Positions 18,678 to 45,516 of a stretch of 64,000 bases of DNA are shown one piece after another (position 1 is the stretch's first letter; each line of letters opens with the position of its first letter). The DNA comes from Saccostrea cucullata (taxonomy: Eukaryota): NCBI RefSeq assembly GCF_032062105.1, contig NW_026936290.1:124001-188000 (forward strand), given 5' to 3'. The translations under genes were made by a program, and so were the position numbers. The notes beneath the pieces were generated by a model. It saw nothing but the letters and a program-made list of their open reading frames with translations, did not search any database and had not been told where the DNA came from.

Positions 18678-20112
18678 TAAGAAATGAATTTCATTTTTGA
18701 AGATTCATGAGGTTATGAACTACGACGCTTCACGCCGGCATATTTCATGAAGCGCGTTAGCGCTTCATGATAAATATGCCGGCGTGAAGCGTTGTAGTTC
18801 ATATACCTCATGAATCTTTAAAAAATTAAAGTCATTTCTTATATTTACATTATTTTCCTGATAACTTGCCATAAATTTACGCCGTTCAACTGTCATTTTT
18901 AAAACAAAACAGTGTGCACTATATTTTTTGACTTTTTGACGTCAAGAGCGGTATTATGACGTAACAATGCAGATATTCCTGCTTATTCGTGATACATGAT
19001 ATACGAGGGCTGTTCGAAAATTATTGAGACAATTTCATTTACTGCATAAAGGACGGAACGGAGATACTTTCATGAAAATTCATCAACATTTTATATATAA
19101 AACTCTTATGCAAAATTTCTTATTCCTATGATAATAAGAAAAGTTTCGGTGAAATGATAAACATGCATATGTCTATCGACCCGGAGCAGCATCGCTACGT
19201 CATTTAACGTCACGTCAGCCTGAGATGGTTTCACACGTAAAACGATCAGGAAGCATGTATACTTTTCCTTCTTTGTAATTACATATAACAGTACAAAAAT
19301 CAAACAGTCTCTTTTCTTAAACTTCCTTAAAAATGTATGCTGTTGCTACCTGAGTGTAAAATTTTCATTTGTGGAAAAAGATGACTTAAAACCATGCAGT
19401 TCTGATTTGTGCAATGCATGTCAACGATATTAATACCGTAACTACGTTAATACCGTACGTAGTAACTGATGGTCGTCCGGAGCTTTTGATTTTACTCTGG
19501 TTGACTTTAAAAAAAATGTATACCAATAAAATAACAAACCCTAACACATTTTTCCTCGTTGTTATTGTTTTAGCAGGTCGTTGAGTCTGCAAAAGAGTTC
19601 TAGATTGCGCTACACAAAGTTTTAGGTATGTTCGCTGCTCCGCCATTGACATCAAAATCCATTTTTTCGTTCTAAGCAGATTTCTCTACCGCGCTTAAAT
19701 TTTTTATGATCTTCGTATTCCTGATCAATATTCTAACAAATTTGCACAACATGAATTTGAATGACAGCTGAAAAATTATAACATAAACAGAATTATTTTT
19801 TGCTCTTATTATGGGTCCACGAAGAGTTAGAACGTTGGTGTTACATATTTTCAATATCTGATTTTGAGACTGCTCCGGGTATCCCTACTGATGACGCATT
19901 TATATACCATTGTACAGAAAATATTTAATGTTTGTAAAATATTTTTTGCTGATATCAATTTTTAGTGTATGTCAAACGCATATGCAAATTTTCACCGAAA
20001 GACGTTCATTAGAAAGCAAAATATACACAGTGTCTCAATAATTTTCTCGTATATATACTGCATTTTATTTTGTAAAGAATCATAGGGGAAATTTATTGAA
20101 AATGTAAATATA
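18678..20112 (+). mobile_element. Hairpin-ended non-autonomous element, copy 1
   Basis: About 165-bp palindrome 18678-18841 centred on gaagcgcgttagcgcttc, followed by TATTTACATT; far end AATGTAAATATA at 20101-20112. Confidence 0.7.
19002..20051. mobile_element. Mariner-type MITE nested in the hairpin element
   Basis: TACGAGGGctgttcgaaaattattgagaca ... tgtctcaataattttCTCGTA; TA flanks; no transposase ORF. Confidence 0.7.
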
Positions 20113-20956
20113 TATATACCTTTGAACATGAGATTTAAAAAAAACGACATCGGGGATACAACATGTACAATGACCTTTTTAGCAATTTAATACAATTTAT
20201 CGTTCAGTCTAGTGTTAACTTTTTTTTTTCAAAGAAAATTGTTAGGCCAATATTTTCATTCTGAATTGTCTACAAGTTTTCCTTTTACCTCGTCATTATA
20301 GAAGGAGCACACGGCGAGTGTGACCGGTCGGGAGGGGATGCTTATGCCTCCATGGAAACTGATCTCATCTCTGATGTTTTAGACTGTTCTCAATTAGTAC
20401 TGTTCTAAATGACTTTTGAGCTTGATTACTGTTCTTTATCACAGAAACTTTTATTTTCATGAGGAATTAATACAATGTAATACTTTCTGAGAAATCTGTG
20501 ACAAGTGCCTAATCTTTCAATATTACGAATAACGACTACAGAGTATCCCATACTGACAATGTAACATTGTTTGCTATGTGCTAGAAATACATGTAGTTGT
20601 TATGGATGAAATGAGTTTAAAAATACTTTCGAAAAACAAACATTTCAACATCATTTATTTTTCTTCATGACATGATTTAGATAAAGATTTACAGGTAACA
20701 TGAATAAAGGTCAAACTTTCTTTGTGTTGTTGCTAGGGGAGTGGTGTTGTTGCTATGGAAATAAGTCATCGAACAATATTCAATAACTTGATACAATATT
20801 TTAAAGTCTTTCCGAACTATCAACATGCAATTATCAGCATATTACTTAAATATCCAATTCCATGACAAACAATACAATCTCAAAGTCAAATCTGTTTTAC
20901 AGGAGACATAGGAACTTTGGTTGTCATGTACACAGAACCCTTGACATTTGGGTTGA

Positions 20957-44400: not shown

Positions 44401-45516
44401 GATCTTTTGCATTGCTCTCTAAGAGAACTAGGCTTATTCAATCAAATAATTCTCAAGATTAGGTTGAATGTCTTCTATATGTAAAATTTTTATCTTGTAT
44501 TGTACACAAATTCTGTAAATGACTAGAGTATTGTCCCTTGGTTACAGTCAGGTTTGTTGAGTGCTGAGGATATTGACAAAGTGTGTTATGACGGACTCGG
44601 TCCCAGATACGCCTTCATCGGACCACTGCAGACAATGCATCTTAATGCTGACGGTTTGTGTGTTAATTGTTAAACTGAAATAAAATTAAATGATTGAAAA
44701 ATCAGCCAAACATCACCTTGGTTAAATGCTTATGGAAGACAGGTTATATAAAACTGATAAGAAACTGAGATGATAAATCTGATTTTGTGATAAATTATTA
44801 TTTAAGATATAAGGTATCATTTTTTGAGTTTTATTGAGATGTAAAATGGGTTGGTCACGTGATCAAATCCCATAAAGCCCGAAGGGCTTTATGGAAGATT
44901 TGATCATGTGCCAACGCGTTTTACATCTCAATAAAACTCAAAAAATGATACCTTATTACTTATATTTACATTTGTGACTTATTCATACTTTATATTTGCA
45001 TGATTATTACTTTTAATGTGTGAAATGCGTTAATTTTTCAAACCCAACGGCATGTATGTAATCCACTTAACGCGCGTCGACCCTTTATGACGTCACAGAG
45101 AAATTACGTCGAACGTTTATCCAAACGCACATCTATGACCTCTTGACCCCGTACCTGTATTTATACAGTTATAAAAACGCTTGCCTTCAGTAGTGTTATA
45201 TAAAGGAAAACATTTGCAAATGTAAATATATCACTATCAGGTTTACTGTGATGCTAATTTGCTAAAGTAAAAAAATCTTCTTTCTGTTGAATCAGGCATC
45301 GTGGACTACTGTAAGAGGTATGCTGACGGAGCCTATAATGTTCAGAAAGAGACTTTTAAACCTATCCCTGTACAGTATGATGTAGAAACAGCAGAGAAGA
45401 TTCAGGCTGAATATAATGCTTCAATCCCATTGGATAAAATTCCAGACAAGAGGAAATGGAGAGACACCAGACTTGCCAATTTAGCTAAAATGAAGAAACA
45501 GTTAGAAGATAAATAG
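41408..45516 (+). CDS. CRYL1: Lambda-crystallin homolog / L-gulonate 3-dehydrogenase (about 315 aa)
   Basis: Exons 41408-41436, 41976-42210, 43496-43657, 44038-44232, 44548-44653, 45296-45516 (948 nt). KIAIVGSGLIG Rossmann motif, QECVPE, ASSSSCLP, VAHPINPPY, GFALNRIQYA, GLGPRYAFIGPLQTMHLNA, WRDTRL. Confidence 0.96.
42243..42800. mobile_element. Degenerate tRNA-derived repeat in tandem and inverted copies (CRYL1 intron 2)
   Basis: Recurrent tagcccagtaagtagagc A-box-like, gggttcaagtccc B-box-like and tgcattttctcctctcctgttaca-like segments on both strands. Confidence 0.55.
42826..43260. mobile_element. MITE with atatttgccccc terminal inverted repeats
   Basis: atatttgcccccccaaatcaaactttg ... 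caaaatttgacttttttgggggcaaatat. Confidence 0.65.
44803..45230 (+). mobile_element. Hairpin-ended non-autonomous element, copy 4, in CRYL1 intron 5
   Basis: Palindrome 44803-44962 centred on aaagcccgaagggcttt, followed by tatttacatttg; far end caaatgtaaatata 45217-45230. Confidence 0.75.

Follow-up and report, generated by a model that had tools for sequence, protein, structure and literature searches.

How elements that share little sequence come to share one layout, and what could move them, is the question raised by the window analysed here, a 64,000-nucleotide stretch of AT-rich DNA (34% GC) from Saccostrea cucullata (contig NW_026936290.1, positions 124,001 to 188,000 of the forward strand) that contains exons of Bcl-2, 3HCDH and B-box/NHL. 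An earlier note on this DNA, made from the sequence alone, had described four elements (E1–E4 below) with the grammar A-loop-a-b...B, in which a terminal palindrome with arms A and a is followed by a short site b, and its complement B stands at the far end. We found this grammar in all four, with a hairpin of 160–165 nt, b directly after it and B at the far end. Their description as largely different in sequence holds for most pairs, which are alike at the ends only, but not for E2 and E4, which are 71% alike over 180 nt. The limits first assigned to the elements had to be shifted, the left end lying 4 nt further out and the right end being 1 nt shorter for E1, E2 and E4; the corrected ends read TAT-TTAAG ... 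ATGTAAA-TAT, with TAA-TTAAAC as the left end of E3.

E1 (18674–20111, + strand, both terminal TAT included) opens with a 164-nt hairpin (18678–18841) that has a GTTA loop and, at 11 bp from the tip, a 2-nt inner-arm bulge, continues with b (18841–18851) and closes with B and the terminal TAT (20101–20111). It is long because a TA-flanked inverted-repeat element of ~1,048 bp (19002–20051), which we take to be a mariner-like MITE, is nested in it; its own size without this insert is ~390 bp, near those of E3 (380) and E4 (431). E2 (29352–30500, − strand, both TAT included) lies within an intron of a Bcl-2-family gene, and its hairpin (30337–30496; 160 nt, GAA loop, bulge at 11 bp) adjoins a 13-nt b (30325–30337) with a T-to-A change that recurs identically in its B (29352–29364). 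E3 (37605–37984, + strand, 380 bp), with left triplet TAA, has a 165-nt hairpin (37609–37773, bulge at 12 bp) and a B (37972–37984) that pairs with b at 37773–37785; it sits inside an inverted-repeat element (37388–38274) whose 99-nt arms are built from 16- and 23-nt subrepeats. In E4 (44799–45229, + strand, 431 bp), the hairpin (44803–44962) again has 160 nt, a GAA loop and a bulge at 11 bp, and B (45217–45229) pairs with b at 44962–44974.

The hairpins correspond to four self-complementary stretches of 165–170 nt with 85.7–87.7% self-identity (18675–18844, 30333–30500, 37609–37773 and 44800–44965). That of E4 folds at −71.9 kcal/mol (z = −20.7), a value reached by none of 200 shuffles, and the pattern TTTAAG-N140-170-CTTATATWTACAT matches E1, E2 and E4, with three matches in none of 100 shuffled sequences. 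E3 is a diverged variant, to which a covariance model built partly from E3 itself gives 129 bits. The same model found no fifth member in the window, its next matches being foldback repeats at ≤68 bits, and no Rfam family matched at gathering score anywhere in the window. The co-variation of b with B that had been listed for the four elements is present, with pairing over 11 positions in E1 and 13 in each of E2, E4 and E3, the last including two T.G wobbles; a random 12-mer had its own reverse complement within 1.3 kb in 1.2% of trials.

Other repeats lie nearby. A retroelement-like repeat occurs as many decayed copies in both orientations (116–4323, 17250–18070, 25700–26200, 47800–48600, 51000–51800 and 59600–60070), an RTE-like reverse transcriptase remnant spans 23160–25560, and two foldback elements (52371–52861 and 63147–63349) have arms made of short tandem units. 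What looks like a recent foldback (template-switch) rearrangement occupies 61538–62352, where a tRNA-like SINE is duplicated together with its flank in inverted orientation (317 nt, 97% perfect) next to a (TA)n run; small tandem duplications lie at the edge.

To define the mobile unit, contigs from four public runs were aligned to window positions 28800–45700. In a related organism, one long contig (X6 record 15) carries the orthologous empty site of E2 and passes from 29354 straight to the right flank of the element, so that exactly 1,146 bp, E2 plus one of its two terminal TAT, are absent and a single TAT is kept. Because this site lacks both the hairpin and the b...B tail, the two form one mobile unit; insertion of the palindrome apart from b...B was not seen. 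The proposal of a TA core with no target-site duplication gave way to a TAT core, which flanks the element on either side in filled sites and occurs a single time in the empty one. This exact empty site is the only one, comes from a related species and lies inside a TA run, and its register is therefore not unique. The right end of E4 is fixed at 45229 by family contigs of relatives, of which 77 and 71 in two runs turn to unrelated letters past that position. A long contig with an empty E4 allele (X6 record 20) skips the element, but 119 unaligned letters cover the junction. Joints within contigs also reveal a shorter form of the E2 family in which 740 bp are skipped, and read depth over E2–E4 exceeds that over the flanks by a factor of hundreds to thousands, which is not a copy number.

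The same alignments touch several other features. E2 and E3 fall in a Bcl-2-family gene cluster (28800–40605, minus strand), and in contigs of run X1 the introns that contain the two elements appear to have been spliced out. Further high-depth repeats with sharp ends in the related runs lie at 42800–43286, 38604–38779 and 32625–32678, the first with short terminal and subterminal inverted repeats.

Copies outside the window were sought by scanning metagenome assemblies with a pattern of the two end motifs, in which the left TAT was required and the hairpin and right end were not. This yielded at least 117 loci, at least 53 of them with the hairpin, or at least 52 once a microsatellite (L068) was dropped. 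Three loci (L092, L078 and L136) were added by eye and one (L143) duplicates another (L125). Among the matches listed, the hairpin copies comprise 47 from two related assemblies and five from three others, on contigs that carry animal genes. Control scans gave none with a hairpin among 65 pattern matches in viral contigs and none among 34 in prokaryote genomes, the best self-complementarity being 48 in each, compared with more than 200 in real copies; a second pattern matched the viral contigs once, with a score of 16 that we take as chance. At least 18 copies, of 228–1,034 bp and from several families, are complete. All 18 among the matches listed end in AATGTAAATAT, their flanks diverging at once, and read TAT-TTAAG ... 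AATGTAAA-TAT between unrelated flanks. TAT thus stands at both ends of 18/18 complete copies among the matches listed and of three of the four window copies, and when the letters after the right-end motif were tallied without bias, AATAT followed in every copy except two mutated ones, again among the matches listed. Copies found without the scan pattern have TAA (E3) or TTT (L075) as left triplet. The latter, at positions 46–206 of its locus, represents a further hairpin family recovered with the covariance model; it starts TTT-TTAAG, and its right end was not seen. No usable paralogous empty site was found among the metagenome loci; one copy (L093) adjoins a satellite. In L134, an inverted partial copy of its own family abuts the right end at a micro-homology, a junction that reflects either rearrangement or misassembly.

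The collected copies support the suggestion that the near-constant hairpin is under structural constraint, in both length (158–165 nt, with a stem of ~80 bp) and shape. Outer arms are only 56% alike among 11 family representatives and yet 82–98% complementary within each copy, and across 12 copies 64 of 75 pairs have changed on both sides, a proportion as high in none of 500 shuffles; pairing is 89% in register versus 36–43% in slid controls. With five copies that have broken or odd hairpins set aside, 38 of 54 hairpins, E1, E2 and E4 among them, have a 2–4-nt bulge in the inner arm at a distance of exactly 11 bp from the tip; in E3 the distance is 12 bp. Loops at the tip, read in register on the + strand, are GAA, GCTA or GTTA, and loops of the GNA/GNNA type are unusually stable in single-stranded DNA. 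Evidence for the use of one strand is mixed. At position 12 of the b/B pairing, T.G occurs in five of 11 family representatives and C.A never, whereas G.T and A.C mismatches number 63:65 over all copies and 20:11 when counted per family, and the loop pattern is found in 39/50 on either strand alike; a strand preference from mismatch counts is weak. When the two ends were joined in silico through one TAT and folded with the internal site, the stem was extended by 11–14 bp in 9/9 elements, with a 2-nt TT bulge. The claim that the joined ends recreate the complement of the internal a-b junction is thus right as to pairing and inexact only in this TT insertion. By eye, columns 12–72 of the arm alignment (A1) show conserved A/T columns about every 11 nt, which suggests repeated protein contacts on one face of the arm.

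The right flanks define a target. For this count, 17 copies were reduced to 16 by dropping L134, whose right flank is the inverted piece of its own family described above; L082 has no flank. Among the matches listed, T stands at +8 after the right TAT in 15 of 16 independent copies, and 12 of these 16 match TRAAY over +8 to +12 if one mismatch is allowed, compared with a background of 9% (p about 3e-10). At other offsets TRAAY was found in 0–5 of 16. The left flank, searched in mirror image, gave 0–8 of 53 whatever the offset and did not peak at −8; its only biases are weak ones, for G at −3 and A/T at −1. The element carries the same box in its own left end (TAT-N8-TGAAT/TAAAT) and in the complement of the internal site (TAT-N6), so that the distance from TAT to the box is 8 nt at the left end, 6 nt at the internal site and 7 nt in the target. 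The target is therefore one-sided, TAT-N7-TRAAY, and mimics the element's own left arm. Within the window, only E3 has a right flank that fits TRAAY in register, with one mismatch; the flanks of E2 and E4 start with the T at +8 and depart from the box at two positions, and E1 lacks this T unless the TA run has slipped by 4 nt. Loose ends of the E4 family in two runs give a consensus of TAAAT at +8 to +12, a weak signal made of AT-rich majority letters.

A source of the enzyme was sought in the coding content. Among 91 internal frames of ≥42 aa from 14 elements there was no relevant Pfam match (recombinase or helicase), and 107 longer frames (60 of 247 from the loci and 47 of 127 from the window) gave no Pfam recombinase or helicase; a PF12012 search of one viral bin was empty. 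The frames examined thus yielded neither an autonomous partner nor a recombinase remnant, and the nature of the enzyme is accordingly an inference. That the elements work like a triplet-core tyrosine-recombinase element is better supported than their likely membership of CryptonA.

We consider it somewhat probable that these are non-autonomous elements that depend on a Crypton-type tyrosine recombinase, probably CryptonA/DUF3504, which is supplied in trans and acts on a folded single strand. When a strand is exposed, for example during replication, A would pair with a and b with B, bringing both TAT ends to one branch point, where a single strand exchange could join B to A and free a single-stranded circle. 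The circle junction would then lie inside a continuous stem of ~90 bp with the TT bulge, and this stem would present two boxes, 8 nt from TAT on the junction strand and 6 nt on the internal strand, to a target with 7 nt. The stem might recombine with a duplex target through TAT as the sole homology, and replication would resolve the product, in which case the donor need not be lost and could instead be copied. Recombination between B-TAT-A and a look-alike host site is expected to leave as its trace a target that is similar to the arm of the incoming element and shares a triplet with it, and it is this trace, together with the terms of DIRS transposition and the precedent of attC sites, that leads us to excision and insertion through a folded strand. 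Counting against this reading, palindromes can keep their symmetry through self-repair, without selection.

Folding would not be needed if a tyrosine recombinase excised and reinserted a double-stranded circle between TAT repeats, the hairpin and b serving as extra protein-binding arrays or as a cruciform. The TAT direct repeats, the empty site and the target mimicry fit this classical Crypton route equally well, but it does not explain why both ends have an internal complement, why there is a TT bulge at the join or why a bulge keeps its place in one arm (38/54), nor does it account for free sequence change with kept pairing. Moreover, 3 bp is little homology for a double exchange by tyrosine recombinases. 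Although it is the published model (in the parts of PMC3212892 and PMC13565253 consulted), we regard it as unlikely here.

Rolling-circle mobilization, also raised by the earlier note, is weakened by the lack of an insertion site between two T residues and of TC...CTRR ends and by a one-sided target that copies the arm. Its closest form, a non-autonomous HLE2 element (Helitron2/Helentron) or HLE2-reverse moved by a Rep-helicase, with b/B as asymmetric inverted repeats and the palindrome as an oversized terminal stem-loop, seems to us quite unlikely. HLE2 elements are described with asymmetric terminal inverted repeats of 8–15 bp, the 3' one immediately before the hairpin (PMC3627910, as far as available), and with repeats of 12–16 nt, the stem-loop being 5' in a reverse form (PMC11417382, likewise); insertion between A and T without duplication would moreover produce the same letters as a TAT repeat. 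Yet no register offers the obligatory pair of T residues (T at −1 in 28/54 and at +1 in 6/17, among the matches listed; the inner registers fall between T and A or A and T), and the ends are not TC...CTRR. Published HLE2 stems have 5–10 bp with the 3' repeat 20–60 bp from the end (in the accessible portions of PMC4067079 and PMC3627910), compared with ~80 bp and 165 nt here, and an arm-copying box at +8 is not among the HLE2 features reported in the portions seen. In the canonical orientation, furthermore, it is the opposite strand that would carry the stable GNA/GNNA loop. Canonical Helitrons (HLE1) were rejected: a register between A and T exists, but the ends are TT...TA or TA...AA, not TC/CTRR. 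We think very unlikely a DDE-type MITE with a 2–3 bp duplication (TA or TAT), a helicase-free HUH element (Replitron- or IS200-like) or a compound of two insertions. TA flanks and a 4-bp TTTA...TAAA inverted match are present, and Replitrons combine short direct repeats with a hairpin (in the part of PMC10288648 available). Ordinary DDE ends, whose presence would have spoken against the earlier proposal, are however absent: terminal inverted repeats do not exceed 4 bp, far from the ≥10 bp sought, and the target bias is one-sided rather than symmetric. The unit is missing whole from the empty site, and among the matches listed 18 further copies have it complete, with no fuzzy ends or variable duplications.

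Likening the elements to Cryptons and to the internal complementary region of DIRS elements was apt (from what we could consult of PMC3266345 and PMC3212892). Non-autonomous CryptonA elements of animals are likewise short, abundant and gene-less and lack ordinary terminal inverted repeats (Kojima and Jurka 2011, PMC3212892, in part), with sizes of 353–709 bp in the portion of that paper available compared with 230–1,030 bp here. As far as the same source goes, no terminal repeats were found in animal Cryptons, and here the ends share only the 4-bp TTTA/TAAA match. Cryptons in general have short direct repeats, one copy of which comes from the target (PMC3212892 and PMC13565253, as available), and no terminal inverted repeats (also PMC13465315, in part); in CryptonF and CryptonS the repeat common with the target is 4–6 bp in the published text seen, versus 3 bp here. 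The internal complement, the bulges and the TAT-N7-TRAAY target are not among the CryptonA features described in the sources as seen. According to the accessible text of PMC13565253, Crypton transposition has to date no experimental demonstration; Crypton-A is very active in an oyster, where it ranks among the leading sources of polymorphic insertions (10.64898/2026.02.10.705023, in part).

Repeat libraries probably include these families already. The Repbase/Dfam consensus sequences of Eulor5/6 and of fish Crypton-N elements probably open with a hairpin of similar size and continue into a tail. Eulor5/6 and the salmon Crypton-N1_SSa have been classed as Cryptons by terminal similarity (PMC5753468, as far as consulted). 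The available main text of PMC3500645 mentions neither Eulor nor a hairpin, the libraries of PMC10294476 are, by their captions, LINE, SINE and DDE, and the supplementary files searched held, in the parts seen, no Crypton consensus with like termini (PMC4455052 and PMC9004415, also seen in part, belong to the same comparison). Repbase/Dfam texts aside, our literature search found no published description of this end design for Cryptons.

DIRS1-like retrotransposons share an internal region complementary to both ends and a 3-bp junction whose sequence recurs at the start and at the end of the element, the ends meeting at this junction and recombining with an identical target triplet (in the accessible part of PMC3266345). 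Unlike them, the elements here have no reverse transcriptase, no gag/RT/YR coding and no long terminal inverted repeats; one complement is of 11–13 bp and the other is the 80-bp hairpin arm at the very end; the triplet is TAT rather than NTT, and the junction has a 2-nt bulge. Integron attC sites, bulged single-strand hairpins that recombine at a triplet with resolution by replication, work alike in that an imperfect hairpin is kept in shape and not in sequence, with unpaired bases on one arm and triplet micro-homology (PMC5027507, as far as seen). They are bacterial and form one continuous palindrome, whereas the site predicted here, from sequence alone, is made of two ends and an internal copy. 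HLE2 Helitrons (Helitron2/Helentron/HINE; PMC3627910, PMC4067079 and PMC11417382, each in part) are alike in having asymmetric inverted repeats of 11–14 bp beside a terminal stem-loop; the stem here is about ten times longer, insertion is not between two T residues, and the target has a box at +8.

New here are an empty site for one element, a target box on one side only and the spacings of 8, 6 and 7 nt between TAT and the box. Since the ends are defined exactly, the target follows a rule and a folded substrate is predicted, the mechanism can be tested with oligonucleotides and a plasmid assay, and the structural signature can be used to classify abundant unlabelled hairpin repeats. Tentatively, we would go further and propose that the Crypton-type elements of animals are to eukaryotes what integron cassettes are to bacteria, with a recombination site that exists only on a folded single strand (the joined ends plus their internal complement), one strand exchange into TAT-N7-TRAAY and replicative resolution. 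If true, this would explain the very high copy number of a recombinase-only transposon, bring the ends of Crypton and DIRS elements under one mechanism and constitute the first single-strand, structure-specific recombinase system in animals.
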